Virus record (IMG/VR): IMGVR_UViG_3300014205_009008
Source of the DNA: an uncultured virus (IMG/VR IMGVR_UViG_3300014205_009008)
Taxonomy: Duplodnaviria; Heunggongvirae; Uroviricota; Caudoviricetes
Reading direction: 5' to 3' (one strand)
DNA length: 64,000 nucleotides
A model generated the notes under the pieces. The model did not search any database. It saw only the letters and a program-made list of their open reading frames with translations, and was not told the DNA's origin. Positions within the stretch are counted from its first letter, which is position 1. Every line of letters begins with the position of its first letter. Shown piece after piece: positions 7,588-58,030 of this stretch. Made by a program: the position numbers and the translations under genes.

Positions 7588-7998
7588 ATGAGATTCGGAA
7601 CTATACACAATTTCCAATTATTTGAAGCGAACAAGTCCAACAGGTTGGACGCAGCATTTGGATTACTACTTATCAGGCTTAATAGTCCGCTCCATACCAA
7701 GGCTGACGCACTAAAGTTGTTTGACGCCATTACCAGAGCCAATTACCGTATTGTCAAGAAACCACAAAGAACAAAGATACTATCCACACTGTTCAAAGAT
7801 TTCGAACAACTTGGAGTTAGTGCAACCATAGGCAAATTAACCAAAGCAGCAGGATTGGATAACACCAGCGAGATACAGGAGAAAAACATTTCGACTATGG
7901 CGAAGTTCTTGCTTGAATCCTATTCCAGAACCAGAAAAAGGCATATAGCACGACTCCAAGAAAAATCAGACACAGTAATGTCGGAAGGCTACGCCTAA
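7588..7998 (+). CDS. Hypothetical protein
   Basis: ORF in an operon-like run. Confidence 0.5.
   Translation: MRFGTIHNFQLFEANKSNRLDAAFGLLLIRLNSPLHTKADALKLFDAITRANYRIVKKPQRTKILSTLFKDFEQLGVSATIGKLTKAAGLDNTSEIQEKNISTMAKFLLESYSRTRKRHIARLQEKSDTVMSEGYA
7986..7996 (+). promoter_or_regulatory. GC-TAC-GC mini-hairpin motif (first of 13 copies)
   Basis: AGGC-TAC-GCCT; the tRNA 5' end lies 25 nt after the loop. Confidence 0.6.
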
Positions 7999-8016
7999 AA
8001 AATAAAACACCAAAAT

Positions 8017-8091
8017 GTCACCATAGTTCAACGGATAGAACGGGAGTTTCCTAAACTTTAAATCCGAGTTCGATTCTCGGTGGTGATACCA
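8017..8091 (+). tRNA. tRNA-Arg(CCT)
   Basis: Cloverleaf with acceptor GTCACCA/TGGTGAT, anticodon loop TT-CCT-AA, T loop TTCGATT and encoded CCA. Confidence 0.9.
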
Positions 8092-8104
8092 AAACATAAT
8101 TTTT

Positions 8105-8422
8105 ATGCTAACAGTTACTGCTGCAAACTACTGGAATGAAATTGAGGCGACCAACCTGAGTACATCTGTCAAAGGGATACTAAAAAGTTTGGTCAACTCC
8201 TACCTTCACGACACAATCCCTGCACAGCTCTCGCAGCACGAAAAGGTTGAGCTTGCCAAAGCAGAAATTACCGAAGTAGAAATTCAGGATACCGAAAACC
8301 GTTCCACCGCAGGCATACTTACCATCATGCACTTTGTTCCCAACGACAAGGAACTGCACAGGGAGTTTCTTTATCTCGCCAAGCACTACCCAAACGGCTG
8401 TAGCAAGGCGTTTAACAAGTAA
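8105..8422 (+). CDS. Hypothetical protein
   Basis: ORF preceded by AAACATAATTTTT. Confidence 0.5.
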   Translation: MLTVTAANYWNEIEATNLSTSVKGILKSLVNSYLHDTIPAQLSQHEKVELAKAEITEVEIQDTENRSTAGILTIMHFVPNDKELHREFLYLAKHYPNGCSKAFNK

Positions 8423-8935
8423 GCTCATGCATTCACAGTCAGCCGCGCGCAAAACAGTAACCCCTTCCAAATCACATTCTACTCATTGTATGAGGTTATG
8501 GGCGCGGGATTACATCTAAGCATGGATACTACACCAAGGATGGCGGCCCAAAATGCACACTTCTTTGCCATGCAAATGGATTGGGCAAAGCTCACCAATG
8601 CAGAACTTGAGTTATACCTCCAGCGTGGAGACGTGCTGGCCATATACGAAAAACACCGTAGAGAGCACCTAACCTAAGTACAAGTATGTTCGAGCTAAAA
8701 TTCGTTAGTTGCTTCATCGTAATCACAGTTGTAACGTACACGATAGGTACCATCGTGCTGTCATTATGGGTTGCCGACAAAGTCACAAGCATCCGCCGTA
8801 CCCAAGGATTTAGATTGGATGGGTTTGTGGATGTTGTTTGTTTTATCTGTACCATTATGAATTTCCATGTAGTGCTACCAATTGGTATACTATTTTCCCT
8901 CCTGAGCTCGAAACCCAGCAAACCTAGGTTACCAA

Positions 8936-10168
8936 ATGACTCTATTTAACGAGCTACAGGCAAGGGGACTCATTCATAATTGCTCCGATGCTGAAAGCCT
9001 GGAGACAAGGTTAACAAGGTCTATTACGCTATACTCTGGGATTGATCCGACTGGTCCCGACTTGCATGTAGGGCACCTATTACCGCTGCTGATGCTCCAA
9101 AGGTTTCAACAGGCCGGGCACAAAGTCATCGTCGTCATAGGTGGTGCCACCGCTCGCATTGGTGACCCATCAGGCAAGAAGGGGGAGAGAGAGCTACTGC
9201 CAATTGAGACAATCAAGTCAAACATCTCCTCCTTGAGCGTTCAAATCAACAAACTCTTTGACTCCAACATCACAATTCTGGACAACGCTGAGTGGTTCGA
9301 AGGCATGAGTTGCCTTACATTCCTAAGAGACATAGGAAAACACTTCCCACTTGGAGGCATGTTATCAAAAGATAGCGTGGCTAGTCGAATTGCAACGGGA
9401 ATCAGCTTTACAGAGTTCTCATACCAGTTACTTCAGGGTCACGATTTCGCACATCTGAATTCAACGCTGGCGTGCGAGCTGCAAATCGGCGGAAGTGACC
9501 AATGGGGAAATATTGTTGCCGGTCTGGAACTTATCAGGCGTACGAATTCCAAAGAATGCTTTGGGCTTACCTTTCCACTGCTGACCAAGTCCGACGGCAG
9601 CAAGATGGGTAAAAGCGAAGATGGAGCGGTCTGGCTTAATGCATCAAAAACCAGCCCGTTTAAATTCTTTCAGTTCTGGCGCCAGGTAACAGACTTGGAA
9701 GTAGGGGAACTTCTGCTCAAACTCACCAGCATCCCGCCAGCTGAGATATCCAGCATTATGGAGCAGCACCGGCAAGCCCCACAGCTAGGAAAGGCCCAAG
9801 AAGTGTTGGCCGCAGCACTTACAGCCCAAGTACATGGTGATGCTGCCACAGAAAACGTCAAGATAGCAAACGCAATACTATTCAATGGCAGCCAGGACCT
9901 CACAGAACATGCACTTGAGGTATTGGCAACCGAAATACCAACATTCTGTTGTAGTAACTCCACAATCGAAGCAGTAGCGCAATGTTTCGCATGCAGTAAA
10001 AGTCAGGCACGAAGGGATATTCAGAGTAAAGGTATCAGCATCAACGGTAAGGTAATAGGGCTAGAAATGTCAGATTTGGACAGCCATTGGATATTCGACA
10101 AATTTATCTTACTGCGCAAGGGAAAAAGGCAATTTGCATTAGGTATCAGGCAAGATAAACTGCAATAG
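8936..10168 (+). CDS. tyrS: Tyrosyl-tRNA synthetase
   Basis: YSGIDPTGPDLHVGH, QIGGSDQWGNI, KMGKS and a C-terminal S4-like LLRKGK domain. Confidence 0.97.
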   Translation: MTLFNELQARGLIHNCSDAESLETRLTRSITLYSGIDPTGPDLHVGHLLPLLMLQRFQQAGHKVIVVIGGATARIGDPSGKKGERELLPIETIKSNISSLSVQINKLFDSNITILDNAEWFEGMSCLTFLRDIGKHFPLGGMLSKDSVASRIATGISFTEFSYQLLQGHDFAHLNSTLACELQIGGSDQWGNIVAGLELIRRTNSKECFGLTFPLLTKSDGSKMGKSEDGAVWLNASKTSPFKFFQFWRQVTDLEVGELLLKLTSIPPAEISSIMEQHRQAPQLGKAQEVLAAALTAQVHGDAATENVKIANAILFNGSQDLTEHALEVLATEIPTFCCSNSTIEAVAQCFACSKSQARRDIQSKGISINGKVIGLEMSDLDSHWIFDKFILLRKGKRQFALGIRQDKLQ

Positions 10169-10242
10169 CTAGAACAAATCAGGAACGTCAAGTTCTTGAT
10201 TAGGCTCTAATTTGAGCTTCCTCCAAGAAAAACATAAAAGAG

Positions 10243-11388
10243 ATGACCGGCAATACACTTACCCTAACAGATGGGAAAACACTATGGCTACACAAGGTGC
10301 GGCATGATGGGTACGATCTTCACGAATTCCTGCAAACACATAAGATTAAATGGGACAAAAGTCCAGAATCTCTAATACGTGAATACCTCAAATATCGGGC
10401 AAAGCAAGGAGGAAGACCATCCGAATTTGATCTAGTAGAAAACCAGAAAGGCTTGATATTTTCATTCCTACTACCTGCAAATGTTCCTGATGTCAGTACC
10501 GAAATTTACTACTCCAACCTATTTGACCTAGCACACCAAGAAATGGATAAAGATCCGCACAAATGGGATGGGTTTTTAACGAGCTATGCCGATTACGAAT
10601 ACTTTATAGACTATAAAAACGGGGAAGCGTACCATATGCAGGACGAACCAATTATGGTACAAAAGAAAACTGCCGTTAAATTATCCAAAGTAGACCTAGA
10701 GAAGGCATCTGAAACACTGCTATTTCCAATACAGGAGCTAATCGGCAAATTGTTAAAATTAAAGCAGGTTAAATCCTCAGCTTTCACCCAGCAGGCACTC
10801 AAAAAGTATTGCTTGGACATATTCACGGTTAAGAATATCGCAGGAAAACCAATGCTTATTATGGGAAACTCACCAATTACACCAAAAGACGCCATGGCAA
10901 ACGTCACCTGTATAGCTGGTCGAGTACTAGATGAGTGTGCAATCAGGCATGTAGTTAAAGAAATCAAATGGACAAGGGCAACAAAGGCAAAAATGGAACG
11001 TGTGAAGAAAGCTATGCCGAAGGAAGTTTATGCGCAATTAATACAGGTTGAGGAGGCAGCTAGGACACTAGGGCAAGAAGCGTTCACTACAGCAGTTAAA
11101 GACTATAAGTCTCGAGAATATTACCATTGGGAATGGATGATAAATACCAATAATGGTAAAAAGTTCAACATCTACGGGTGTAGCCGACCAGAACACACGT
11201 TGTTTGCAGTTAGACAACAAGGAAAGAATTTCCCACATTATAGAACCGTTAAGGAATACCAGCAAGCTATTCATAAGGAGATTTGTAAGGCAATCAAAAC
11301 CAAGTTGCCATTGCCACCATTTTCTAAGCGTAATACGTCCCACGAAAAAGTTAGAGCAACGGTCAAGAAAGGAATGACGGCTAAATGA
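10243..11388 (+). CDS. Hypothetical protein
   Basis: 381-aa ORF after AAACATAAAA. Confidence 0.6.
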   Translation: MTGNTLTLTDGKTLWLHKVRHDGYDLHEFLQTHKIKWDKSPESLIREYLKYRAKQGGRPSEFDLVENQKGLIFSFLLPANVPDVSTEIYYSNLFDLAHQEMDKDPHKWDGFLTSYADYEYFIDYKNGEAYHMQDEPIMVQKKTAVKLSKVDLEKASETLLFPIQELIGKLLKLKQVKSSAFTQQALKKYCLDIFTVKNIAGKPMLIMGNSPITPKDAMANVTCIAGRVLDECAIRHVVKEIKWTRATKAKMERVKKAMPKEVYAQLIQVEEAARTLGQEAFTTAVKDYKSREYYHWEWMINTNNGKKFNIYGCSRPEHTLFAVRQQGKNFPHYRTVKEYQQAIHKEICKAIKTKLPLPPFSKRNTSHEKVRATVKKGMTAK

Positions 11389-11427
11389 TTCAGTAGCACA
11401 TTGGTTGTTGTCAAAAACAAATAAATT

Positions 11428-11865
11428 ATGCCAGTTTATCCAAAAGGAACCAAATTTCTGTATTTTTCAAGTGCAGTCGTTTCCATGCAGAAAACAGATC
11501 TGGCCCCTGGGAAAACAGTGCTGGTTGAGGAGAATTTTGGCATTTACAAGGAGAAGAATAGAGTTCCCACTGAAAAACTAAGGCCGGCACCTCCACGCCA
11601 CCCACGCTTTAGTGAAATTAAATGTGTCACAGGATATGTTGACAGCTACGGAGCTGTTCACGCTGTTATAATCTTTGATGATCAGGATACCCAGCATGAG
11701 GCAGTGTTTCCAGAAGTAACAAGGCACAAGCGTTGGCGATGGTGGAGAAGCGAAGGCTTAGATAAGAGTGCACTCAATCAGGTTGAGCCAGATAGCGAGG
11801 ACTGGGAAAACATTAAGTCATGGTTATTAAAGAACGGTTGCTTTAACTACTGGGAAGTGGATTAA
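11428..11865 (+). CDS. Hypothetical protein
   Basis: 145-aa ORF. Confidence 0.5.
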   Translation: MPVYPKGTKFLYFSSAVVSMQKTDLAPGKTVLVEENFGIYKEKNRVPTEKLRPAPPRHPRFSEIKCVTGYVDSYGAVHAVIIFDDQDTQHEAVFPEVTRHKRWRWWRSEGLDKSALNQVEPDSEDWENIKSWLLKNGCFNYWEVD

Positions 11866-11885
11866 AAAAACCCGTTACAACGGAA

Positions 11886-11914
11886 TTGACACGCACCGCC
11901 TACAAGTATACAAT
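11886..11914 (+). promoter_or_regulatory. sigma70-type promoter
   Basis: TTGACA-N17-TACAAT upstream of the ATG at 11937. Confidence 0.7.
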
Positions 11915-11936
11915 ATTGAACTAGACACCGAACCAT

Positions 11937-12928
11937 ATGAAGATAAGAACTCTACTCACAATAGTAATCGGCATCCCATGTAGCGTGATGGCTGACCCAT
12001 ACCCCAACACGCAGTCGCCGGAGCAAGCATCCTACACGTCACCATATGTATATTCGCCAGCCATCACAGCACCAGCCATCACCACAGGATTTAACGATGA
12101 TCCACGAGTCTTTACCAACTGGCAGGACTGGTCGCTAACACCTTACTCCGATTGGCAAAACTTTAACGCCATACAACACCTCGACTCCACTTGGGGGGCA
12201 TACTTCAAACCTATAAACGGACCAGTAGATGTACAAAGTGCCACAACCGAATGGCTGCAGACCAGACTGGTTGCAGCAGCATCTCTCCTGCGCAATACAG
12301 TGCCATACGGGCATCACCACATCCAAGTTTGGGACGTACCAAATACCACTCAGTGGACAGATGCAGGTTACGAGGCAGGCTACGGAATTGACTGCTCAGA
12401 CTTCACACACTGGACTTACAATTACGGGCTAGCATCCAACTCAAAACCGGGGTAGCAGAACAAGCCGCCATGACATCGGCTGAAATATATCTTGATGATG
12501 GAAGCGTGGTTCTAGTTGAAGGGCAGCATCTATTCGACGTTCATAACGGATATGTCAAAGACTACAACTCACTCGTATCCAGTCTGCAGCCCGGCGATCT
12601 TCTATATATTCGCAGTGACCCAGCACTCTCAAATCCTATCTCCCACGTTATCATGTGGCTCGGTGGATTAGCTACAGATACAAACGGAATCGATGCATAC
12701 TTTGTCACAGACAGCCACGGAGATGTAGTGTATGATTCCAACGGAAACCTTATACCATCTGGACCAGAAATCCGACCATTCGGAAAAGACAGTTACTACT
12801 TTGGCTCATTCGACCACGTAGTGCGTTACGCACCATTGAATATTGTTCCAGAACCAACAACAATAGGGCTCTTTGTTTCGGGAGCGATCATGCTGGACAT
12901 AAAGCTCAAGAAACGCCGCAAAGAATGA
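11937..12928 (+). pseudogene. Secreted NlpC/P60 peptidase with PEP-CTERM anchor, split by a 1-nt frameshift near 12432
   Basis: Signal peptide and GIDCSDF in ORF1; LQPGDLLY, SHVIMWLG and VPEPTTIGLF...KKRRKE in ORF2. Adding one base restores YGLGIQLKTGVAEQAAM. Confidence 0.8.
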
Positions 12929-13557
12929 AACTAGGGACTACAATGTCTGAGGATCTGATCGCTGAGTGGACAACGCCAGGGCTAATAGGAGTTTCACGAC
13001 TGCACGAAGCATGTATGAACGGTAACCTAGAAAAGGTCCCAAAACTTCTAATTACTGACGAATATCTGAGTCAAACAGAAGCTAGAAGCAAAGAAACCTC
13101 GTTTCACTACTTGGCCATAAGCAAGGCATTAGATAAACTTCCTATCGGCGTACTAAACCACCAAAACCTTACCAAGCCAGATGCATTGGGCACTTCCGTA
13201 CTACACATAGCAGCCGAAAATGGGAGCATAGAACAGATACCAAAAAATCTCCTAACTAGAGAAATCTTATTAGAAGGTGATACACGCAGCGTACTTCACC
13301 TTGCAGCGAGGTACGGGCACCTCGACAAGTTACCAGACGTATTTCTGCCAGAAGATTATCTTATCGAGATAAATCAATGGACACCATTCCATTTGGCAAA
13401 ATGCTGGGGCCACATGCACCAACTCCTGGGAGTTGACCTGCCCAAATCCTGTGAAAAGAGTGTAGATAAGGAATGGTGGGAGAAAAATCAACGATTGCTT
13501 CATGTTCAGGAAGAACTTATAGTTAACACCACAACACCCGACCTCGACCTATTTTAA
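12925..13557 (+). CDS. Ankyrin-repeat protein with WW/DLF tail
   Basis: SVLHIAAENG and SVLHLAARYG; ends KEWW...DLDLF. Confidence 0.85.
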   Translation: MKLGTTMSEDLIAEWTTPGLIGVSRLHEACMNGNLEKVPKLLITDEYLSQTEARSKETSFHYLAISKALDKLPIGVLNHQNLTKPDALGTSVLHIAAENGSIEQIPKNLLTREILLEGDTRSVLHLAARYGHLDKLPDVFLPEDYLIEINQWTPFHLAKCWGHMHQLLGVDLPKSCEKSVDKEWWEKNQRLLHVQEELIVNTTTPDLDLF

Positions 13558-13595
13558 ATTATATAGGCTACGCCTTATCTATCAAATAAAGTATC

Positions 13596-14018
13596 ATGCG
13601 AAGTTTGCAAAAGAGTGGGCGTTATGTGTTTCCTCGCTCACTTGTCGACATACCACATATCCAGTCACAGGCCGCGCGCATATTGCTAGAGAAAGCACTT
13701 AGAAAGGCGCAAGGGCCTGTATTGCCAAAATGGATTGTATGGCTAAAGTTCAGGGAAGAATTTCTAGCAGAACTGCCCACTGACGCGTGCACTTGTTTCT
13801 ATTGTGACAAACCGCTGGATAGAAAGATAACCAATCAGAAGCACCCCATGTGCCCGACGCTGGATCATTTTACACCGCTAGCGTCTGGCGGGTCAAAATA
13901 TGATAAGAAAAATCTGGTCATCTCCTGCCGCAAATGTAACTCGAAGAAAGGGCATATGCAGCCAGAAGAATTCATCAGAAATCATGCCCCACAAAAGTAC
14001 CAAGAAATCTATGGCTAA
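13596..14018 (+). CDS. HNH endonuclease
   Basis: CFYC...TLDHFTPLASGG...NLVISCRKCNSKKG. Confidence 0.9.
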   Translation: MRSLQKSGRYVFPRSLVDIPHIQSQAARILLEKALRKAQGPVLPKWIVWLKFREEFLAELPTDACTCFYCDKPLDRKITNQKHPMCPTLDHFTPLASGGSKYDKKNLVISCRKCNSKKGHMQPEEFIRNHAPQKYQEIYG

Positions 14019-14280
14019 GAAACCCATATTTGACTGCTTCGATTGTCAGCAGAACACCGCCGAAATCGACGAGTACTTCATGATACACAACGAGCTTTGG
14101 GATATCGTGACAGCACCACCCAAAAAAGGCGGGTATCGCATCCTGCTATGCATTGGATGCACAGAAGACAGGCTGGGAAGAAAACTAACCAAAGATGATT
14201 TCACAGATTGCCCTCTAAACACTGGAGAGCTGGATTTTAACCCACACTCAGACCGCATGAAAGACAGATTGTCAGCATAG
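14011..14280 (+). CDS. Small Zn-finger-like phage protein
   Basis: CFDC...LCIGCTEDRLGR; start moved to the ATG at 14011. Confidence 0.55.
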   Translation: MAKKPIFDCFDCQQNTAEIDEYFMIHNELWDIVTAPPKKGGYRILLCIGCTEDRLGRKLTKDDFTDCPLNTGELDFNPHSDRMKDRLSA

Positions 14281-14310
14281 GCTACGCCAAACCATACCAA
14301 CAGCACCATC

Positions 14311-14766
14311 ATGATCCGCTACCTCATTATCATCTCCATCGCATTCGCACTGCTGAGCCTAACTCACGCAAGCATTCCAAAGGAGACTATTTCCGTTCCT
14401 GTCACGAAGCTCGACACCATCAAGTTCAACGGCGAGGATTACAAGCTCAAATCATCCAACCCTTCCGAAATTGGCACGCAAGAAGTATTTGAGGGTCCAA
14501 AGGCATTTATCACCAGAATCTCTGGCACCAGCAATCCGAAATACGAGGTTGCAGGTGCTGCAAAAATTGAAGGAGCAAAGCTATTTTGGCAGTCAGACGA
14601 ATCACTAGGATTCCAATACGACGTCAAGGGCCGCAAAGTTCTCGAAATCTGGCTGTTCAGCGACAACCAGACACTAGCCTATACTGAGATCACGGACCAG
14701 TTGCCCAAAAAGGAAGATCTGGAGAAAATTGTAACCAACCTGTCGTCCCTCAAAAACAACCTGTAA
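14311..14766 (+). CDS. Hypothetical exported protein
   Basis: N-terminal signal peptide MIRYLIIISIAFALLSLTHA. Confidence 0.55.
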   Translation: MIRYLIIISIAFALLSLTHASIPKETISVPVTKLDTIKFNGEDYKLKSSNPSEIGTQEVFEGPKAFITRISGTSNPKYEVAGAAKIEGAKLFWQSDESLGFQYDVKGRKVLEIWLFSDNQTLAYTEITDQLPKKEDLEKIVTNLSSLKNNL

Positions 14767-14770
14767 TATT

Positions 14771-15337: not shown

Positions 15338-15351
15338 AAAACATAATTTCC

Positions 15352-15852
15352 ATGAAGCTTAAGTTTAAACAATCGGCTAATCAAAAAGCATTGGTGGAAA
15401 ATACCAAGAAAGCACTCGAGCTATTCGCAAAGCTCGAGCTGCAGCCGATTGTTACAAAGGGGGAATTCGGCACAAAGATCGAACTGTCACTGTCAATCAA
15501 TGTTAAAGGAAAGTCGGACACGATCTCCCCAACATTGAGTTTTATTATCACCGACAAAGAGTGGCCAGTATCATTGCTGCAGACAAAAACTGCTCACGCT
15601 AGCGCCCAACTACCAGACTTGTCACCAAACCCAGAGGACCAAGTTGGAAATCTCGACGAAGCCAACTACTACAGGATTGACCAAATACCGCAACTAATCG
15701 AAAAACAAGTTACAGGTTGTGTTATTGATCAAATCGTCAGCATCAAACAATTCCTTACCTGTGATAACGAGCCCAAAGACGGTGAGAAAATATTCAAACC
15801 ATTCTTCAGGACATACTACCAGCTGGAAACCCCAAAACCAGTATCAAAATAA
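15352..15852 (+). CDS. Hypothetical protein
   Basis: Start inferred after AAACATAATTTCC. Confidence 0.5.
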   Translation: MKLKFKQSANQKALVENTKKALELFAKLELQPIVTKGEFGTKIELSLSINVKGKSDTISPTLSFIITDKEWPVSLLQTKTAHASAQLPDLSPNPEDQVGNLDEANYYRIDQIPQLIEKQVTGCVIDQIVSIKQFLTCDNEPKDGEKIFKPFFRTYYQLETPKPVSK

Positions 15853-16451
15853 TGTGTGATCATAACAACAACCCAGGTTATTGGCAGCAAGGTTTAGAAA
15901 TACTGGCAAAGCGCGCCTATCCAGAACTGAAGAAGTCAGGCATGTGTAGCAGACACAGAGAAAACGGGCACTTCGAATGTGAGATTTGTTACCCTGTCTG
16001 GGATGAGCTACTAAAGGCCCACATGGAGGTTTCCCACAGACTGTACGACGAATTGCTAGCACTGTCTGGCCTTACAGATCCGCCAAATGGGAGGATAGGA
16101 ACCAATGCGATAGTTGCAGAACTTAAACGCAAGCTCAAGATGGAAGAAGTCCGTTCATCCCCAGTCACCTGCATTAGAAAGCCGAACACACCAAAAGACG
16201 ACATCAAGCATGTCCTCGACCGAATGTGGAACTGGAAAATGGATTCTGCATTTCGGGTGGCCTCTGCTATCGAAAATTTCCCACCTGAAGCACTCGCTAA
16301 GCTGAATTACCTCAAGGACGAATTCGGCAACTGCGGTTGGCAGGATGGTGAAGCTTACGGCAAACTGCGAGACGCGAATAACGAGGTTGCGGAACTGCTG
16401 GGGTATACATGGAGCGACGATCAGGATAAATGGATTCTGAAACCAAGTTAG
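15852..16451 (+). CDS. Hypothetical protein
   Basis: 199-aa ORF with an overlapping stop/start. Confidence 0.5.
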   Translation: MCDHNNNPGYWQQGLEILAKRAYPELKKSGMCSRHRENGHFECEICYPVWDELLKAHMEVSHRLYDELLALSGLTDPPNGRIGTNAIVAELKRKLKMEEVRSSPVTCIRKPNTPKDDIKHVLDRMWNWKMDSAFRVASAIENFPPEALAKLNYLKDEFGNCGWQDGEAYGKLRDANNEVAELLGYTWSDDQDKWILKPS

Positions 16452-16501
16452 CGCTACGCGCCATTCATTAAAGGCTACATCTAGCACCGAAGGTAAGAAG
16501 C

Positions 16502-18280: not shown

Positions 18281-19332
18281 ACCCACAAGTAATCAAAGTA
18301 CTCACCGAAAGACTGCCAAAGTCGTTCGTCAAAACTGGACCATCATCCTTCATGCTCCGCAACCCTGGCAAGATCGTGTTTGTCAAGGTAAACAGCGACA
18401 GCGTCCTCATCGTCAACGACGGAGGAGAATTCCAAAGTGGCATGGACATGGTCCGCATCCTGAAGGCCGAAGACGCAGCGCACCAAGCGGAACTTGATGA
18501 GCAAATAGTTCAGGATATCGTCTCACTAGCCTAGAGAATAGCGGATTGGCTACGCCATACCCAGCCAAGAACAACAGCATGAAGCTCAAAATCAATCGGA
18601 CAGTATTCTGGTTCATACTAAGCTATTCCCTGTTATTGAACCTAGCCATTACGGGTGTCGCAACGAACATGTCGATAAAACATAAGGCAGTCGCTAAAGC
18701 ACAGGAACCCACAGCCACTAAGACCTACCCAAACATTATTGAGGATCTCGAAAAGGCCCCAGCCATTTCAGTTATGGCAATCGATGAGGTCGGCGTCTCA
18801 AATGACATGAGCATCGAATCTCTCCAGAAAGCGGTAGCCGAAGAAGTCAACGAACAAGCAGCCAAGCTCGCCACCAAATAAAAAATCATGGATACCAACG
18901 ATCAGAACACCGACAGGGCTCAGCTACAGGCTCTCTCCCAAGTGCAGCCCTCAAGCGAAACCACCAACGTGCAACGCATTGAAATCAACAGGGACTTTTA
19001 CTCAGAATGAGCGAGCGATTCGACGATAAATACAAGGTTGGGGAGGCACATGAGCTGCCACTGAACCATACCCTAGCCCGCACCGAGTTTGTTGCAAGGG
19101 CACTGGAAATCCAAGCCATCCAAGCATGGGCAGGATCAGAAGGAATCCAGCTCCGATCGGAGTACTGCACCAGCGTCCGCAAAAAGGGTGGGAAAATCAT
19201 TTCTGCCAAGGTTCTGACCTACGACTACAAGCCCATGGCAGCAATGGCTGAACCACAGGCAAAAAGGCAGGTCGTGGTTTCAACAATCAACTAAAGAAAT
19301 GCTACGCAAAATTTAATCAACAACCATAACAT

Positions 19333-19863: not shown

Positions 19864-20410
19864 CAGGGTTGTCATATGAAAAAGAAAATCCTTCAGTTCC
19901 TTCTCCGCTGTTATCTCAAAGCTAACATCAGGCAGGGGTCAGCACAACACCGCGCAGATTTTCATGAACTGATCGACGAGACTCTGAAGGCAATGGAGTC
20001 AGCCTTCCACGAAGAATCCCGAATCCAGCTCAAAGGATACCTCAAGCAATGTGTTGATGAGGTGGACTGCAGCTATCCTTAAGTCAGAACGGCTACGCCT
20101 CTGACAAAAACAAAAGTAATATGTCAGAGATAGAACAATTTCTATTCCCAATGCAAGTGGAGACCAACCCTGCCCCATTCAGGTTCTCCAAACTTGCGCC
20201 CAAGGAAAAGACCGAGCTTGTCAGCAAGACTCTAAAGTCCATCTACGCGGCAGTACCCAAAAGCAAAAAACACAACACCCAGATTACCAAATTTGTATGG
20301 GCGCAGTATAAGTTGGGCGCCGACTCCATCAACCCTGCAACGATTGAATCACAAGTTTCAAAAATCGAATACCAAGAAGAGCTAGAAAAAGCACAAATGG
20401 AGATCACGAA

Positions 20411-22581: not shown

Positions 22582-23352
22582 ATGATTGCGCGCCTACAGA
22601 CAAAAAACGGGAAGCCGTACTCTGTGGCCGCCACATTGGCAATAGAAGGCTTCATCCAGCGCGGCTATGAGGTAGTCCCATTTGACATCAAAGATATTGA
22701 CCGTATTCAATGGCAAAAAACCGAACCAGTCATAGGTGGAGTTGGAACATGTCGTAGAATCCTCGAACATCTCGGAGTTAACTGGCACCGCGACACCTAT
22801 CCAATCCAGCTCCGCAGTCACTTTAGGAGAAATCTTAGCACCTGCAAGATAGGCGAACTAAAAGAGTCTGATTTGCCAGTCTTTATCAAGCCAACTCTTG
22901 ATACAAAAACATTCACTGGTTTTGTGTGCAAGGACAAGTATGACCGCCGACTTGGAAACATTCCGCCAGACTTAGACATCTACAAGGTGGAAGTGGTAGA
23001 GTTCCTGACGGAATATAGAGTCTACGTTCTGGACGGGAAGATCCTCAATATAGCAAGATATACAGGACCAGTAGACCACATGCCAGACGTCTCCACCATA
23101 CGAGACATGATCAATGCCATGCACTCAACAACCACCGAGGGTCCCATCGCCTACAGCCTGGATGTAGGGGTTCTAGACACAGGAGACACTGTATTAGTTG
23201 AGGTTAACGATGCACTAAGCCTTGGAAACTACGGGCTTTGCCCAGCATTGTACTCCAAAATGATCAGCGCAAGATGGCTTCAGCTAGTAGGGCTGTCATA
23301 TCTGGAGGATGCAGAAATAAACGACTCACCAAGCTACATAAACGCAAACTAG
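22582..23352 (+). CDS. ATP-grasp domain protein (DUF4343/R2K-like)
   Basis: PVFIKP...KTFTG, EYRVYV, YSLDVG and LVEVNDALSLGNYG. Confidence 0.8.
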   Translation: MIARLQTKNGKPYSVAATLAIEGFIQRGYEVVPFDIKDIDRIQWQKTEPVIGGVGTCRRILEHLGVNWHRDTYPIQLRSHFRRNLSTCKIGELKESDLPVFIKPTLDTKTFTGFVCKDKYDRRLGNIPPDLDIYKVEVVEFLTEYRVYVLDGKILNIARYTGPVDHMPDVSTIRDMINAMHSTTTEGPIAYSLDVGVLDTGDTVLVEVNDALSLGNYGLCPALYSKMISARWLQLVGLSYLEDAEINDSPSYINAN

Positions 23353-23382
23353 GCTACGCCAAAACCAAATACAAACCATATC

Positions 23383-34903: not shown

Positions 34904-35342
34904 ATCGCTACGCGTTAAATAACCAAAACATCATGCAAATGGACAAGCTCAAAGAATTCATTGATTCACGCGTCAAGGCAGTTAAAGAGGCTCCAGAGAG
35001 GCGAGGACAGTTTCTTGTTGATTCATTCAAAGATCACTGTATGGGAGCAGTCTACTTTGCCAAGGACGCAGGTATCATCGACACAATCGATGAAAGGCGC
35101 ATGATGAATTATGTCAGTGCCCAATTCGATATCTTGGAGCAAGAATTTGAAGCATGAGCGGGATCACCTTTCAATCCGATCACGACAAGGACGATTGCCC
35201 GCATGTTATCATGATTCTATCCAACGGTAGGGCAGTTGCCGACCTTGGAAGGGGAATGGATTGCAGTGATGCTGAATGGGAAGAGCTGCGCAATCGGATA
35301 CAGGCTAGTTTTCCCCAAAAACAAATTGAAGAATTAACGTAA

Positions 35343-39852: not shown

Positions 39853-40606
39853 AATGCAAACCAAGAGAAACTACATAGGAGTTACAGGGTTTAGAGACAG
39901 GCAAGAGATAGAGGAGATCTCCAAATTTGCCGATCAACTCGAATCAAAGTGTAGGGTGCATTATGGGGTTATGACCGGCAGAAAGAAACTATCGGATATC
40001 CCATCAAAGTACTCACATAGCTTTTTAAGCTATGAAGCATTGGATAACATTTTCCCAGCAGCAACTGAGTCGACAATGAATTGCGTGCACTATGCCGATT
40101 ACGGAGAAGATGTGGACCCGCTAATAACGATGGGAATACTAGCCAAAATATGCTTCTACTGTAACAACATGCAAGCACTTCAACTGGATATGGTACTTCC
40201 ATCAGAAAAGGCAATAAACCCAATTGTAACAATGTTTCCCCATATCGAAGTCATTCTCCAGATTAATCCAGAAACACTGGCACAAAAGACTACAGAACAA
40301 CTCAAGGAATATCTGAACGGTTTCATAAGGGTGGATTGGCTGCTGTTTGATCAGTCAAAAGGAACCGGTAAAAAAGGTGACCCAGCACAAATGGAAAAGT
40401 TTATCAACGATTTCCCAGAATACCGCGTAGCTTTAGCTGGTGGACTTGGCCCAGAAACACTAACCGTCCTTGGACCGCTGCAAGGGAAGACCAGCATAGA
40501 TGCACAGGGCAGACTTACTAGAGCAGGAGAAGATCAATTTAACCCGTATCTTGACCTTGCCAAGGTCAAAGCATACTTACAAACATCCACACAAGCATAT
40601 GGGTAA
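39845..40606 (+). CDS. Phosphoribosylanthranilate-isomerase-like TIM barrel
   Basis: IGVTG, LLFDQSKGTG, ALAGGLGPE and SIDAQG. Confidence 0.65.
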   Translation: MNEMQTKRNYIGVTGFRDRQEIEEISKFADQLESKCRVHYGVMTGRKKLSDIPSKYSHSFLSYEALDNIFPAATESTMNCVHYADYGEDVDPLITMGILAKICFYCNNMQALQLDMVLPSEKAINPIVTMFPHIEVILQINPETLAQKTTEQLKEYLNGFIRVDWLLFDQSKGTGKKGDPAQMEKFINDFPEYRVALAGGLGPETLTVLGPLQGKTSIDAQGRLTRAGEDQFNPYLDLAKVKAYLQTSTQAYG

Positions 40607-52330: not shown

Positions 52331-52402
52331 GGAAAGCTTATAACGGTATATTACTAAAGCAAAATTTTAGGCTACGCCTAAATTACCAAAAACAACATTA
52401 CC

Positions 52403-52708
52403 ATGAGCCGAAAATCCAAGCTCCTTAATCGCTTGTCTCCCAAAGGCAACCGACTGGATAAAGAGACTACAGACGAAATCATCCAGCAAGGATTTTACCA
52501 CAAGCCAAGGGGCCCCGTATTTGTCCGCAAAGCCAAAAATGCTGAACTATCACACGAGCTGGAAACCGGATCTGTTCGCAATCGCGCCTACGGCGGTGGC
52601 AGCCACAAGGGCAAGCCAATCTTCGGTCACAATGGGCCAGCCGAACGGGACATTATTGCCAAGGAAATCGGCAAACAAACCAAAGCACGCAAGCGTAAAA
52701 AGCTATGA
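52403..52708 (+). CDS. Small basic hypothetical protein
   Basis: Lys/Arg-rich; follows a GC-TAC-GC hairpin with a 7-bp stem. Confidence 0.5.
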   Translation: MSRKSKLLNRLSPKGNRLDKETTDEIIQQGFYHKPRGPVFVRKAKNAELSHELETGSVRNRAYGGGSHKGKPIFGHNGPAERDIIAKEIGKQTKARKRKKL

Positions 52709-53190
52709 TCAGAGAAATCCACGGCAACTTACTTGAACTCGCCAAAGACGGAGAATTTGACGTCATTGCACATGGGGCAAACTGTCTCTGCACCATGGGA
52801 GCTGGTATTGCCAGGGGTATCGCATTTGAATTTCCTGAAGCCCTTGAAGCAGACAGGCAAACTACGCGAGGTGACAAGCACAAGCTAGGTTCATTCACCG
52901 CCGCATTTATTCACGAATACGAATTTACCATTGTTAACCTCTACACGCAATTTGGTTTCGGCGCAAGTAAGTCCACAACCGAACAAGAGGAGCGGTATGT
53001 CGCCATCAGAGAGGGCCTGAAAAAGCTCAAGGCGGCCTTCAGTGGCACTCGAATCGGGCTACCACTTATCGGGGCAGGGCTGGCCGGCGGAGATTGGGAC
53101 ATCATCAGGGATATCATTATCAATGAGCTTACAGACGAGAATGTTACAATCGTCTACTTCGACCGTCAGCCGCCAAGTCCAACAAACTAG
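52705..53190 (+). CDS. Macrodomain (ADP-ribose binding/hydrolase)
   Basis: IHGNLL, AHGANC..TMGAGIA, VNLYTQ and PLIGAGLAGGDW. Confidence 0.92.
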   Translation: MIREIHGNLLELAKDGEFDVIAHGANCLCTMGAGIARGIAFEFPEALEADRQTTRGDKHKLGSFTAAFIHEYEFTIVNLYTQFGFGASKSTTEQEERYVAIREGLKKLKAAFSGTRIGLPLIGAGLAGGDWDIIRDIIINELTDENVTIVYFDRQPPSPTN

Positions 53191-53244
53191 GCTACGCCAA
53201 TTAAATTAACAACAGTATCTACACGACGCTAGAATCAAAGCAGG

Positions 53245-54462: not shown

Positions 54463-55305
54463 ATGAAAACCATCCTTGCATTCTGCGACAGCCTTTGCGA
54501 ACCCAACCCCGGCGACATGCACGTCGGCTGCTGGGCAAAAAATGAAGAGAACGAGGTTCTGTTCGCCACCCACAAGCGCATCGGTTATGGAACCTGCAAC
54601 GAGGCGGAATACCACGCGCTCTTCAGCATCGTCGAGATGCTGGAGGAGAAATTTCAGGGTAACTGGCCCAAGGTCATTATCCACTCGGACAGTCAGCTGA
54701 TGACGAAACAGGTCACCGGCAAGTGGCAGACCACCAAGCCTGAAATCATTTCCCTCTACAACAAGGCAATGGCGCTCATGGCCAAATACGGATTCACGGT
54801 GCAGTGGATTCCCCGTGAAAATAATGCCATGGCAGATGCACTCGCCCAGCAGCAGCGCCTGAAGGGTTCTGGTCGCAGGTACACCCTTGAGGACGGCCGC
54901 TTCCGCGTCCACAGGAACACCCCCTGCGTCGAGATCTTCACCGACAAGGAGATGTGCAAGATGCTTCACACAAACCGCATGAGCGAGCTCAAGGTCCAAC
55001 TGGAGGCTGAACTGGAACGCAGCCAGACAGACTTCCCATCCCTGCTCGAAACACTGCAATCCCTGCAGCAGGAAAGCGAAAAGATCCAATCGGGATTGCC
55101 CAAGATGAACGGGCTCATCCAAGAATGGGTGGACTCGACATTCCACATGCTGACTGACCACTTGGACAACTTCATCACTCTTGCCAAAAACGAGGATGAC
55201 TCTGTCAGCACCGCCCTCCAAGAATTCCTCACCGCCATGGAGGAGAAACAAAGCCACCTTGCGGGAGAGGAAGACGAAACAGCTGAGGAACCAGCCTACG
55301 CATAA
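54463..55305 (+). CDS. RNase HI-like protein with acidic helical C-terminal extension
   Basis: CD..NPG, TCNEAEY, HSDSQL and WIPRENNAMADALA. Confidence 0.85.
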   Translation: MKTILAFCDSLCEPNPGDMHVGCWAKNEENEVLFATHKRIGYGTCNEAEYHALFSIVEMLEEKFQGNWPKVIIHSDSQLMTKQVTGKWQTTKPEIISLYNKAMALMAKYGFTVQWIPRENNAMADALAQQQRLKGSGRRYTLEDGRFRVHRNTPCVEIFTDKEMCKMLHTNRMSELKVQLEAELERSQTDFPSLLETLQSLQQESEKIQSGLPKMNGLIQEWVDSTFHMLTDHLDNFITLAKNEDDSVSTALQEFLTAMEEKQSHLAGEEDETAEEPAYA

Positions 55306-55742
55306 TGCCAAGTCTAAAACCAAAGCCTCCTAAAGGCTGGACCGCGCACCAGCTAACCAGATTGCCAGCCAAAGGATATTACGTCAGCTACTTTTCCGCA
55401 GCTCCGTTCTATACGGCCTATTTCGTAGGAAGCGGAAAATGTGAATACGCAAGATGCCAGCCTACTAATATAACTTCTCCTGGTGGAAAGGGATCCACCT
55501 TTAGGACTGGGGACTGGCATACGCTGTTGTGGAATTGTGCCCCAACCAAGAAGAAAATCGCAGCATCAAAACTCCTCACCCTAACAGGGAAGTTAGGGCC
55601 ACATGACGAACAGTTCCACTACTTCAAGGACTACACGGACCTATTAACAGCATGGAATTCCTTCGCACCACTATATTCGGCGGTCGCAAAGGCTCCTTCT
55701 GACATCTAAGCTACGCTTAATCCAATAAACACCGAATCACGC

Positions 55743-57521
55743 ATGAATACCAATTGGAACCTGCAATTGCTCTATACTGGCATGGATGATCCGCAGATAA
55801 CAATGGACATCGTAGACTTTGAAAATCAATACATCCAGTTTAACAAGAATTACTCCGGATCAAACCTCGCAGACAAGGCCACCCTGCTAAAGGCCCTCCA
55901 AGATTACACCCGCCTGCTATTTTGCCGTGGGGAGAGGGCAATGATTTATTTCAACTATATCACCGAGCTCAACAGCTCCGATACAGCAGCGGAAGCAGCC
56001 CTCTCGCTCACAACGGAAAGGATCACCAAAGCAAGCAACGAGGTCATCTTCTTTGATCTAAACCTCGGTAAAATCCCCGCAGAAACCCAGCAGGCTTTCC
56101 TGCAGGATCCTGACTTCGCACAATACCGCTATTATTTGGATGGGGTATTCAAGACAGCAAAATACAACCTGTCAGAAGCCGAGGAAAAGATTATATCACT
56201 CAAGGACGGGCCTTCTTACAGCATGTGGGTCAGCGGTCAGGAAAAGCTCCTGAGCCACCAGACAATTAACTGGAAAGGCAATATCATCCCGCTCACTGAA
56301 GCACAGGAACTTGTTGAATCACTGCCCACAAAAGAACGCCGCAAGCTCCATAAACAGGTAATGGCAAAGCTCAAATCCGTCAGCGATTTTGCCGAGGCAG
56401 AGATCAACGCCGTCTACACCGATAAAAAGATTGATGACGAACTTCGAGGGTTTAAGACCTCCTATGATGCAACCCTCCTCGAGCACGAAACAACCGAAGA
56501 CACAGTCTTTGCACTAGTCCAGTCAACGGCTTCAAATATCGCCATTAGTCACAGGTTTTTCAAGCTAAAGGCCAAACTCCTAGGACTGGAATACCTCACA
56601 TATGCAGATAGAGCAGTCACCCTGAGCACAGAACAGAAAGAAGTCCCCTTCGAAGCTGGAGTCCAGATCGTCAGAAAGGCATTTGCTGCAATGGACAGCC
56701 AGTTCTCAGACATCTTTGATTCGTATCTAGCCAAGGGGCAAATCGACGTATATCCAAAAAGCGGGAAAAGTGGTGGGGCATATTGTTCCAGTAGCATCGG
56801 CAATCCAACATACGTCCTGTTGAACCACATGCCCGACATGCAGTCAACCGTCACCCTCGCACATGAAATGGGGCATGCGATCCACAGCGAGCTCTCAGAA
56901 TCACAGCCGCCGCTCTATCAAGCCTACACCACCGCCGTCGCTGAAGTAGCCAGCACATTTTTTGAACAGATTGTATTCTATAACATGCTCGAAACACTCA
57001 GCGTCAAAGAGCAAATAGTGGCCCTCCACGATCGTATCAATCAGGATATCCAGACCACCTACAGGCAGATTGCATTCTTCAACTTCGAACTCGAACTTCA
57101 CCGGACAATGAAGAAGAAGGGGGCGGTATCCAAGGAAGAAATTGCAACCATCCTCAATAAGCATGTTTCCGAGTACCTAGGGGACAAATTCAAAATGGCG
57201 GAAGACGATGGTTTCTTCTTCGTTGGGCTCAGCCACATGCGAGACTTCTTCTATGTCTACTCATACGCCTATGGCAGTCTGATCAGCAGGGCGATCTACA
57301 AGCAATACGCCGAGGACAAGAATGCCCTTGTCAAAATCAAACAATTTCTATCTGCCGGTTGTTCAAAGAGCCCAGAAGATATTTTCAAAGATATCGGAAT
57401 CGACATCTCCAAACCAGAATTTTGGGACAACGGCTTCCAAGCAATCGCGGAAGACATCGACAGGCTGGAAGCATTAATCGCAAACAGCAAGGCGCAGGTC
57501 AGCAAATTAGCCCAAAATTAA
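55743..57521 (+). CDS. pepF: Oligoendopeptidase F (M3B)
   Basis: WNLQLLY, GKSGGAYC, TLAHEMGHAIH, AEVASTFFE and FYVYSYAYG. Confidence 0.92.
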   Translation: MNTNWNLQLLYTGMDDPQITMDIVDFENQYIQFNKNYSGSNLADKATLLKALQDYTRLLFCRGERAMIYFNYITELNSSDTAAEAALSLTTERITKASNEVIFFDLNLGKIPAETQQAFLQDPDFAQYRYYLDGVFKTAKYNLSEAEEKIISLKDGPSYSMWVSGQEKLLSHQTINWKGNIIPLTEAQELVESLPTKERRKLHKQVMAKLKSVSDFAEAEINAVYTDKKIDDELRGFKTSYDATLLEHETTEDTVFALVQSTASNIAISHRFFKLKAKLLGLEYLTYADRAVTLSTEQKEVPFEAGVQIVRKAFAAMDSQFSDIFDSYLAKGQIDVYPKSGKSGGAYCSSSIGNPTYVLLNHMPDMQSTVTLAHEMGHAIHSELSESQPPLYQAYTTAVAEVASTFFEQIVFYNMLETLSVKEQIVALHDRINQDIQTTYRQIAFFNFELELHRTMKKKGAVSKEEIATILNKHVSEYLGDKFKMAEDDGFFFVGLSHMRDFFYVYSYAYGSLISRAIYKQYAEDKNALVKIKQFLSAGCSKSPEDIFKDIGIDISKPEFWDNGFQAIAEDIDRLEALIANSKAQVSKLAQN

Positions 57522-57985
57522 TGAGAAGCTCCAAAAGAGAACAGCTCAGGAGGGTTGGTAAGCAACTAATCAGAATAATTAAGAAATATTCTCCAAACAA
57601 AGATGAGGCTTTAGACGCTACTACACATGTAACTATCATGAGAGAGCTAGGGTTCCGCCGCTCACGCAATGGAACCAACGGCGCATGGATCAACAAGCAA
57701 AGAGGCTACGTTGTGAAAAGCCCTTACTTATGCTCTTTCGAAGACGGCACTGAAGTTCCAAAGAAAGCCATACCAACAATTGTTATTGGCGACAAGAGTT
57801 TGGGGCAAATATGGATACAGCCACTTGCGGATACATCTACCGAAGCCGTCCGCAAAGCACGCAAAATAATCGTGAAAGGGGAACGCAAATGGGACCCTGA
57901 AATGTTTATGAGACATTGGGGTAAAGATGCCCATACCCAAAACATAGGGCTATATAAAAGCAAGCCAGTGGTTTTTGACTGGTGA
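57521..57985 (+). CDS. Minimal protein-kinase-like fold protein
   Basis: YVVK, WIQP and DAHTQNIG...VVFDW (DxHxxN plus the Mg-binding Asp). Confidence 0.55.
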   Translation: MRSSKREQLRRVGKQLIRIIKKYSPNKDEALDATTHVTIMRELGFRRSRNGTNGAWINKQRGYVVKSPYLCSFEDGTEVPKKAIPTIVIGDKSLGQIWIQPLADTSTEAVRKARKIIVKGERKWDPEMFMRHWGKDAHTQNIGLYKSKPVVFDW

Positions 57986-58030
57986 ATCATCGCGGATTAG
58001 GCTACGCCAAATACATCCAGAAACAGTAAC

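Follow-up and report, generated by a model that had tools for sequence, protein, structure and literature searches.

A GCTACGC mini-hairpin module repeated at gene boundaries of a large phage-like element, and its candidate role as a private promoter

An uncultured virus assigned to the Caudoviricetes (IMG/VR record IMGVR_UViG_3300014205_009008) is represented by a stretch of 64,000 nucleotides, which was analyzed at its full length and is called the window throughout. Thirteen copies of a short module lie between its genes. Each is built on the heptamer GCTACGC (the core, or 7-mer), which with its pairing flanks forms a potential hairpin (the box) and is followed by an A-rich spacer. A model that had seen only the letters and their open reading frames (ORFs) had pointed out these copies and proposed them as candidate N4-like hairpin promoters; we refer to this as the sequence-only reading.

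Occurrence and placement of the GCTACGC boxes

GCTACGC matched the 64-kb window 15 times, 14 of them on the + strand. Enrichment over shuffled sequence, which the sequence-only reading had left to be checked, was evident: in 100 dinucleotide-preserving shuffles, the word occurred 4.21 times on average and 12 times at most, and none of the shuffles reached 15. Two matches were taken as chance copies outside the family because they lie inside ORFs and do not share the context of the others. These were the match at 63492 on the + strand (63492..63498, within ORF 63413-63814, with neither a paired flank nor an A-rich spacer) and the sole match on the - strand, at 40431 (40425..40431, within ORF 39845-40606). 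The remaining 13 were those listed earlier, a word count over the window returning every one of their coordinates, and all of them were on the + strand, in the single orientation that had been reported. No one-mismatch variant of the 7-mer was found in the same context in the window, and when the N-GC-NNN-GC-N' sites whose flank pairs were counted by loop, TAC had 13 occurrences and no other loop more than 4. All motif statistics come from a single window with 13 copies. As a family, the motif is genuine, does not reflect chance, and is private to the element.

The copies, all on the + strand, are described here from left to right, with positions inside a copy counted from the first base after the 7-mer. 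Copy 1 (7985..8016) has the box aAGGCTACGCCt with a 4-bp stem and a 22-nt A-rich spacer that ends at the 5' end of tRNA-Arg(CCT) at 8017. Copy 2 (13564..13595, TAGGCTACGCC) is separated by a 22-nt spacer from ATG 13596 of an HNH endonuclease gene, and copy 3 (14278..14310) consists of TAG, the stop of ORF 13984-14280, followed by GCTACGCC and a 23-nt spacer up to ATG 14311. Copy 4 (16449..16483, TAGcGCTACGCg, 4-bp stem with C-G as the third pair) is of a long-spacer type: ATG 16502 lies 42 nt past the core and is preceded by GAAGG, with ATC-T-A at positions 20 to 24. Copy 5 (18546..18578, tTGGCTACGCCa, 4-bp stem) has a 23-nt spacer before ATG 18579; copy 6 (19298..19332, aaTGCTACGCA, T-A as the third pair) has a 25-nt spacer before ATG 19333 of an NT5C nucleotidase gene; and copy 7 (20089..20120, cGGCTACGCC, with an outer TCAGA/TCTGA stem) has a 22-nt spacer before ATG 20121. 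In copy 8 (23350..23382), TAG, the stop of an R2K ATP-grasp gene, precedes GCTACGCC, and a 23-nt spacer leads to ATG 23383 of a 54-codon ORF. The shortest spacer, 19 nt, was that of copy 9 (34904..34932, atCGCTACGCG, C-G as the third pair) before ATG 34933; an in-frame second ATG at 34939 would make it 25 nt. Copy 10 (52368..52402, TTTAGGCTACGCCTAAA) combines a 7-bp stem with a 25-nt spacer before ATG 52403. Copy 11 (53188..53221) is again of the long-spacer type, with TAG, the stop of a macro-domain gene, before GCTACGCC, ATC-T-A at positions 20 to 24, and ATG 53245 of a PcfJ-like gene 47 nt past the core. Copy 12 (55707..55742, TAAGCTACGCTTA, 5-bp stem with A-T as the third pair) contains TAA, the stop of ORF 55305-55709, and a 26-nt spacer before ATG 55743 of the M3 oligoendopeptidase gene, while copy 13 (57998..58030, TAGGCTACGCC) has a 23-nt spacer before ATG 58031 of an RNase H gene.

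The copies had been described as lying at gene boundaries, and each was indeed located 0 to 27 nt past a stop codon or spanned one. A simple ORF list leaves only 9.4% of the window non-coding, and 12 of the 14 + strand matches have most of their length in this fraction (binomial P = 3.6e-11); the four final codons of ORF 7588-7998 are overlapped by the copy at 7988. Boxes always follow a co-directional gene, in gaps of 29 to 54 nt where both neighbors are clear, whereas the other internal junctions of the window overlap or are 1 to 19 nt apart. Directly upstream of the core, TAG was present in six copies and TAA in one, with TAG displaced by one base in another. This triplet is the stop of the preceding ORF in five copies (14281, 16453, 23353, 53191, and 55710), and no conservation was seen upstream of the box's TAG in the 13-copy alignment. 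The gene list is a greedy ORF call, and the stop-to-box distances at 14281, 52371, and 58001 hinge on short ORFs.

Placement at the exact gene boundary, with the box supplying the upstream stop in the five copies just named, is what a junction of mobile gene cassettes would show. On that account, the box would be a recombination or insertion site folded as a single strand, comparable to integron attC sites or HUH-enzyme targets, and would travel with an imported gene. The downstream genes are unrelated accessory genes (HNH, NT5C, RNase H, PepF, and small ORFans), and PeSL cassettes of T4-type phages recombine at their stem-loops (PMC2839356). A recombinase was detected nearby neither with Pfam nor with NCBIfam, and a site of 9 to 11 nt is far below attC size. 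Of the sequencing runs listed, one DNA run and no RNA run contained the stretch; its contigs offered no alternative joints, and 7000-26999 was covered there by an unbroken piece without joints at the boxes. We therefore regard the cassette junction as highly improbable.

The TAG of the box was also considered as a site of recoding or readthrough. This was ruled out, as stops in the window are TAA 51 times, TGA 22 times, and TAG 18 times, and code 11 gives intact TyrRS and PepF. A pairing between the box and helix 45 of 16S rRNA was dropped as well, since in the ribosome this part of the rRNA is already paired. A replication-priming site was rejected because it would leave the fixed distance to gene starts unexplained, although mini-hairpins are known at the G4 and ssiA origins (PMC13037366).

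Pairing within the box and what may read it

The pair beside the core was complementary in 13/13 copies (GC 9, CG 2, AU 1, and UA 1), bearing out the flank covariation noted from the letters. The covariation score of this third pair was 0.287 versus 0.096 in shuffles, and 1 of 500 shuffles scored as high. Fourth and fifth pairs were formed in only 6/13 and 7/13 copies, so the stem under selection is taken to be one of 3 bp with a 3-nt loop. Contiguous stems measured 3 bp in seven copies, 4 bp in four, 5 bp in one, and 7 bp in one, and the longer stems that the sequence-only reading had assigned to 16451, 55707, and 52366 were correct. Since the coding strand is GCTACGC in 13/13 copies, the template strand is GCGTAGC and, as had been recognized, belongs to the GCGNAGC family. 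PMC13037366 describes GCGNAGC (N being any base) as an extraordinarily stable DNA mini-hairpin that is present in the N4 promoter and in priming sites; the heptamer family is bound by the mini-virion RNA polymerase (mini-vRNAP) of N4 and used at transcription and priming starts (PMC13037366).

All four copies with a variant flank were altered on both sides with pairing kept. Complementary double changes in 4/4 variant copies favor structure-reading, because a protein that reads duplex DNA would not demand them. That the box is read as a structure, in either of the two start geometries discussed below, is in our judgment possible while clearly on the doubtful side.

The double changes bear directly on a duplex DNA operator of the "stoperator" kind, at which a repressor of the element would bind an asymmetric 11-mer and block or modulate the elongating polymerase. 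Copy number, single orientation relative to transcription, short intergenic gaps, and a strictly conserved core all resemble the stoperators described in PMC9283540. Besides not requiring compensatory changes, a roadblock would need neither a fixed downstream block nor a fixed distance to the start, and no helix-turn-helix protein or repressor was detected in the window with Pfam. A stoperator-like operator is thus quite improbable.

A hairpin directly behind stop codons might likewise be taken for a terminator or attenuator of the upstream gene. No U-tract follows it, the 19 nt downstream being 55% A and 18% T, and the stem is 3 to 4 bp in 11/13 copies, compared with at least 5 GC-rich bp for a terminator. 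No box was present at any convergent gene end. Terminator-like sites between 7000 and 26900 numbered 21 versus 23.3 in shuffles and were not enriched, and the sole match of the terminator scan over a box (16463-16449) was on the minus strand. Termination is hardly credible as the function of the box.

One other intergenic hairpin was seen at 22546-22564, where the minus strand reads ATTCTGGT-GTA-ACCAGAAT and the plus strand TTCTGGTTACACCAGAA. It is located directly past a stop codon and ~17 nt before ATG 22582, the same kind of place as that of the GCTACGC boxes.

The downstream block, its register, and where RNA may start

The 7-mer and the next start (10 ATGs and tRNA-Arg) were separated, in order along the window, by 22, 22, 23, 23, 25, 22, 23, 19, 25, 26, and 23 nt, so the earlier figure of 22 to 29 nt after the loop in 11/13 copies was right within its counting convention. 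The two exceptions were 42 and 47 nt. With 22 nt, the tRNA-Arg 5' end conforms to the spacing of the ATGs. Spacers consist of 55% A, 23% C, 18% T, and 5% G, in line with their description as A/C-rich. When the alignment was anchored on the 7-mer, a block of conserved columns emerged: C, the paired base, at position 1 (9/13), A at position 4 (11/13), a pyrimidine at position 7 (10/13), A at position 8 (12/13), a pyrimidine at position 10 (10/13), and A at positions 12 (13/13), 13 (9/13), and 15 (12/13). Over 18 columns, the hairpin-anchored alignment held 7.58 bits of information versus 5.49 bits when it was anchored on the starts. Start-anchored columns showed A at -12 in 10/11 copies and A at -11 in 8/11.

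The 3' edge of the module was even more regular. A pyrimidine-purine (Y-R) step with its purine 23 or 24 nt past the 7-mer was present in 13/13 copies, which no other pair of positions attained; a 13/13 Y-R step at any position arose in 18 of 5,000 spacer shuffles. In seven copies, the purine coincides with the first base of the next gene (A of an ATG, or the 5' base of tRNA-Arg); in four (19301, 34907, 52371, and 55710), it lies 2 to 4 nt before the ATG. In the long-spacer copies (16453 and 53191), ATC-T-A occupies the Y-R site and the ATG is 18 to 23 nt beyond; the G-rich stretches GAAGG and AGCAGG precede these two ATGs and are absent from the other spacers. A pyrimidine stood directly before the start in 10/11 copies versus 49/75 other + strand genes. 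Separately, a Y-A step at positions 7 and 8 was found in 10/13 copies, and any column pair reached that height in 12 of 20,000 spacer shuffles. Several of these column statistics were chosen after the alignment had been viewed; the shuffles correct for the choice of position and not for every choice of measure.

A second motif private to the window provides a context for these starts. It reads AAAACATAA(A/T)T, with the operon-head form AAAACATAAAT, and was found on the + strand at 631, 4506, 6221, 8093, 10231, 15340, 22074, 28222, 29172, 33388, 33916, 37786, 38670, 49739, 58982, and 63129. Its core AACATAA has 20 copies on the + strand and 2 on the - strand, and 15 of the 20 have, 5 to 10 nt past the T, a start codon that opens an ORF of 40 codons or more; AAACAT of the motif ends 6 to 10 nt before the ATG. 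AACATAA stands at four of the five + strand operon heads that follow divergent junctions (28237, 37800, 49757, and 63141). Because it is found at operon heads, where a promoter must exist, the AAAACATAAAT class very probably represents leaderless promoters in which AAACAT substitutes for the -10 hexamer (TATAAT). The motif also shifts several likely gene starts (15352, 22088, 33932, and 49757).

Translation signals and the genomes of the Candidate Phyla Radiation (CPR) point in the same direction. Shine-Dalgarno-like strings precede 5 of 56 ORFs in the window and 60 of 1,135 ORFs in a comparison set of CPR loci (L002-L081, 80 loci around pepF in Paceibacteria-type genomes). In these loci, the distance from the end of a TAYAMT box to the ATG, taken over 1,126 ORFs, was 6 nt in 93 cases, 7 nt in 43, 8 nt in 29, and 9 nt in 28, with most other distances represented 1 to 6 times. 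This is a leaderless layout.

Signals of the sigma-70 type were seen in the window too, namely TTGACA-17-TACAAT (11886-11914) before the gene at 11937 and TATAAT 8 nt ahead of ATG 26302 (26288-26301); the window may therefore hold three promoter types. Upstream of tRNA-Arg(CCT), the string AACA-N6-T-G(+1) at 7995-8017 ends exactly at the mature 5' end. This sequence fits the late-promoter consensus of phage AR9 given in PMC7598289 (A-11 ACA, 6N, U, A/G+1), and the tRNA might be made without a leader.

The best explanation we can offer, which we favor tentatively and hold to be somewhat short of probable, is that the 13 copies form the upstream part of a private promoter module, with RNA starting at or near the start of the next gene. 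The block is anchored on the box, and its Y-R 3' edge is kept whether an ATG, a tRNA, or neither follows; this is what argues for a promoter. The module of ~35 nt would comprise the box TAGGCTACGCC, forming a hairpin of a 3-bp stem and a 3-nt loop with d(GCGTAGC) on the template, and an A-rich block at fixed spacing with A at +4, +8, +12, +13, and +15 after the 7-mer. Transcription would start at the Y-R step 23 or 24 nt past the 7-mer, which we propose as the most economical reading in an otherwise leaderless system: at the very first base of the coding sequence or of tRNA-Arg in seven copies, 2 to 4 nt before the ATG in four, and 18 to 23 nt before it in two, the latter with G-rich, Shine-Dalgarno-like leaders. 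Messages would accordingly be leaderless or nearly so, as predicted for the AAAACATAAAT class and for Paceibacteria-type CPR genomes. The box would then span about -33 to -23, with its center near -28, and the A-rich block would place A at -12/-11. With T missing at -7, recognition by a host sigma-70-type factor alone is unlikely, so the box must supply specificity; it might recruit or replace a specificity factor, such as an element-encoded polymerase, a sigma-like protein, or an activator, and its reading would probably be aided by the template-strand mini-hairpin. We infer an RNA start at the module, the exact start site, and a protein that reads the box from the anatomy, covariation, and positional conservation described above.

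Several observations weigh against this explanation. The start-anchored position -7 is C in 7/11 copies and A in 4/11 and never T, so that A at -11 with T at -7, the mark of a sigma-70-type leaderless promoter, was not found. The Y-R step at 23/24 was noticed post hoc and in part restates that a pyrimidine precedes the ATG, and positions 7 and 8 hold a strong Y-A step that has no role in a geometry with the start at 23/24 and favors an N4-type start. The hairpin box is present at 0/5 operon heads following a divergent junction; it always lies 0 to 27 nt past a co-directional stop, where an element acting in polycistronic RNA would be placed likewise. As a structure, the 3-bp stem is very weak (nearest-neighbor energies of -1 to -4 kcal/mol in most copies, from parameters that may miss the special loop), and covariation is supported by four variant copies. 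Finally, Pfam and PDB sequence searches yielded no polymerase, sigma, or DNA-binding candidate in the window, and the motif was in none of the related genomes examined (GTDB genomes, JGI metagenome contigs, and IMG/VR).

The Y-A step would fit a geometry in which the template GCGTAGC mini-hairpin would be bound by a phage-encoded single-subunit (T7/N4-like) RNA polymerase. RNA would then start 11 nt past the loop center, at the 8th nucleotide after the 7-mer, and leave leaders of 12 to 19 nt that are A/C-rich, G-poor, and devoid of a Shine-Dalgarno sequence. According to PMC4496689, N4 early promoters are conserved from -17 to +1, with a GC-rich heptamer centered at -11 and inverted-repeat flanks, and the module in this register matches that description remarkably well. 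Setting the loop center at -11 puts the first base of the conserved TAG at -17. The contacts of the N4 virion RNA polymerase (vRNAP), template G-10 and G-8, follow from the invariant coding-strand C5 and C7, a match that holds only in the same register, and positions -6 to -3 are 88% A/T. Positions -1/+1 are Y-A in 10/13 copies and +1 is A in 12/13 (column P = 0.005); position 8 had been derived from the N4 geometry before the columns were computed. The template G-N-A loop of 3 nt in a GC-rich heptamer with inverted-repeat flanks is shared with the N4 early promoters, and the GCGNAGC heptamer family, to which the box belongs, is bound by mini-vRNAP (PMC13037366).

The loop center and the start base differ from those of N4. 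The template loop center is T in 13/13 copies, whereas N4 requires a purine, A or G, at -11; the coding strand at the equivalent of +1 is A in 12/13 copies and T in 1/13, whereas N4 requires C on the template (PMC4496689), so that the start base here would be A and not the G of N4. Stems are 3 to 4 bp in 11/13 copies versus 5 to 7 bp in N4. A12, A13, A15, and ATC (20 to 22) would fall within the transcript, and it would go unexplained why the ATGs and the tRNA 5' end are equally far from the box. Neither a T7-like nor an N4-like polymerase, nor any other RNA polymerase gene, was found among the 72 + 24 ORFs of the window that were compared with Pfam. The 13 copies are scattered over 50 kb, compared with three sites at the genome end in N4, and precede unrelated genes in an element that is not an N4-like genome and in whose window no vRNAP gene was seen. 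The module thus falls outside the N4 promoter family in its present definition, and we consider an N4-type promoter with a start at position 8 unlikely. Of the original proposal, the promoter-type reading remains best supported, through the in-register block and the Y-R step in 13/13 copies; membership among the N4 early promoters did not hold with respect to loop center, +1 base, stem length, copy number, and placement. The two alternatives that the proposal named, an RNA processing site and a protein-binding site, stand among the less likely readings weighed here.

The placement behind co-directional stops suits an element in polycistronic RNA, in which a GC-UAC-GC hairpin and the A-rich tract would be bound by an RNA-binding protein or a nuclease. 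It could serve as a processing or stabilizing site, a translational operator, or a ribosome-loading module for internal cistrons that lack a Shine-Dalgarno sequence. The signal always stands in co-directional runs, 0 to 27 nt past a stop and 19 to 26 nt before an ATG, leaving the ribosome-binding stretch free, and it is never at operon heads. Covariation suits an RNA helix as well as a DNA helix. Junctions of ~38 nt may need an initiation signal of their own, since the other internal junctions overlap or are 1 to 19 nt apart, and in Cluster K mycobacteriophages some of the genes are preceded by "start-associated sequences" that share one orientation and are of unknown function (PMC3203893). 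No special stability is known for a 3-bp RNA stem with a UAC loop, in contrast to its DNA complement in the account of PMC13037366, and Rfam 15 at the gathering score returned no family match for the box. The hairpin at 7988 precedes the upstream stop codon, so that cleavage there would yield non-stop RNA. The tRNA copy and the two long-spacer copies retain the 3' part of the module (ATC-A/TA), although there is no ATG at that point. An RNA element therefore seems to us about as doubtful as the N4-type promoter.

The element, its relatives, and comparable systems

Pfam domains in the window comprised TyrRS, an M3 oligoendopeptidase (PepF), YqeY, two RNase H proteins, NUDIX, NT5C, and an HD-polynucleotide-kinase (PNK)-like protein, together with a DarG-like macro domain, HNH, GmrSD-N, and PcfJ. 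The three tRNAs were the sole Rfam matches, and 57 of 62 further ORFs had no match in NCBIfam. No capsid or terminase gene was found in the window. PepF (55743-57521) is closest to proteins of Paceibacteria/Parcubacteria-type CPR bacteria (50 to 57% identity), whereas TyrRS (8936-10168) had no match above 52% outside the window's own cluster, with named neighbors in scattered phyla and none in the CPR. A public gene call starts TyrRS and PepF later (358 and 579 amino acids [aa], respectively); a homolog alignment backs the longer PepF. About ten ankyrin-repeat proteins (regions 2613-3866, 12925-13557, 29915-33377, 35563-37754, and 61496-62881) and a 1,444-aa RHS-repeat protein (43899-48233) form an unusual load for a bacterial phage-like element. 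Overall, the genes form a mosaic, phage-like set, and we infer a large phage or other large mobile element, perhaps of a CPR host.

A partner protein for the box was sought among 24 unknown proteins, for which Pfam gave nothing at E up to 0.5; nor was one found in NCBIfam, PHROGs, PDB sequence searches (five proteins), or one Atlas look-up. The N-terminal 65 residues of a 372-aa ORF (24929-25130) had non-significant PDB matches (E 0.34 to 0.65) to ADAR1 Z-alpha domains, which bind Z-DNA and Z-RNA.

Searches for relatives covered phages, CPR genomes, and metagenomes. The 4.3-kb DNA of the 1,444-aa gene had no relative among 50,697 phage records, and TyrRS, PepF, and the PNK-like protein led to none in IMG/VR, nor did an exact 28-mer of the window match there. 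A close relative is on record through an 8.3-kb contig with an NT5C protein at least 90% identical. The 80 CPR pepF loci showed no synteny with the window: apart from PepF, none of 91 window proteins had a homolog closer than 10 kb to pepF in these genomes, and GCTACGC occurred in the 80 pepF loci at background (49 forward and 31 reverse in 1.43 Mb), never in a hairpin context. GGCTACGCC had 0 to 2 copies in each of five relatives' genomes and none of 401 genomes belonging to the same order was enriched for it, the top count being 24 versus 35 for a control word. A JGI metagenome scan with a clade-specific PepF segment returned one 3.8-kb contig, with a Shine-Dalgarno site and no motif. An IMG/VR scan for TAGGCTACGCCNAANNNA gave 79 loci, of which only L128 and L103 were multi-copy and neither had an intergenic module. 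In these two, contigs from giant-virus metagenome-assembled genomes, TAGGCTACGCC recurs every 138 nt or multiples thereof in a coding tandem repeat, a trap for motif searches.

The huge phage LR756500.1 (462 kb, 24% GC, uncultured) has three GCTACGC and homologs of 3 of the 91 window proteins. These are a 197-aa unknown protein (window 4517-5110, LR756500.1 386706-387203, 41% identity), the HD-PNK-like protein (20773-22080, 24519-25562, 32% identity), and the DarG-like macro-domain protein (52705-53190, 19280-19708, 43% identity).

By analogy, the closest functional counterparts of the module would be PeSL cassettes and CPR leaderless promoters, and the closest counterparts in pattern the SAS/ESAS and the Cluster A stoperators. 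PeSL cassettes of the T4-type phages RB49 and phi1 share a repeated, co-oriented stem-loop with a promoter before small accessory genes of a large phage (PMC2839356). They measure ~100 bp and have sigma-70 -35/-10 boxes, between or over which the stem-loop often lies, GGGG/CCCC terminating stems, and a Shine-Dalgarno sequence (PMC2839356), whereas the module described here is ~35 nt long, with an invariant 7-mer, a 3-bp stem, no Shine-Dalgarno sequence, and no -35/-10 consensus; it contains neither TTGACA nor TATAAT. Patescibacteria/CPR leaderless promoters and the AAAACATAAAT class have in common with it a start 6 to 10 nt past an A-rich, -10-like block, a pyrimidine before the start, and no Shine-Dalgarno sequence. 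In contrast to both of these, the hairpin class lacks T at -7 and carries an extra conserved upstream box.

The SAS/ESAS of Cluster K mycobacteriophages are likewise private, short, strongly conserved motifs of one orientation before a subset of non-structural genes, sometimes including the upstream stop (PMC3203893). They lie 3 to 7 bp from the start, contain a Shine-Dalgarno core, and have inverted repeats without support for pairing, whereas the box here is 19 to 26 nt from the start and has a covarying flank. The stoperators of Cluster A mycobacteriophages are similarly numerous, asymmetric, located in short intergenic gaps, and oriented with transcription; they are duplex sites of a monomeric repressor, under no pairing constraint and at no fixed distance from a start (PMC9283540). 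Among the matches listed for 9- to 10-mer spellings of the motif in the literature, which were primers or unrelated, none described it. Most likely, the module is a promoter or regulatory cassette private to the phage; a smaller share of the probability falls to a dispersed use of DNA-hairpin promoters. In its specific form, the latter would be a large uncultured phage, possibly of CPR bacteria, that employs d(GCGTAGC) template mini-hairpins as dispersed, structure-read promoters, served by a polymerase or factor not related to the virion enzyme of N4; this we hold to be conceivable and rather unlikely.

Structure-read promoters are known in detail only for phage N4. If the box is read as a hairpin, these 13 sites, with their natural compensatory stem variants, would provide another system, independent of N4, in which the reading of DNA shape by a polymerase could be studied. 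Dispersed hairpin promoters would, moreover, amount to a general expression code before at least 13 genes and a tRNA, beyond the handful of genome-end sites of N4-like phages. Were the box instead read as duplex DNA, the module would still mark out genes as one class, temporal or regulatory, in large phage-like elements of a lineage so far unexplored. With mRNAs that would be leaderless and free of Shine-Dalgarno sequences, it would also help to fix gene starts, and together with the AAAACATAAAT class, it would give one genome two private promoter codes.

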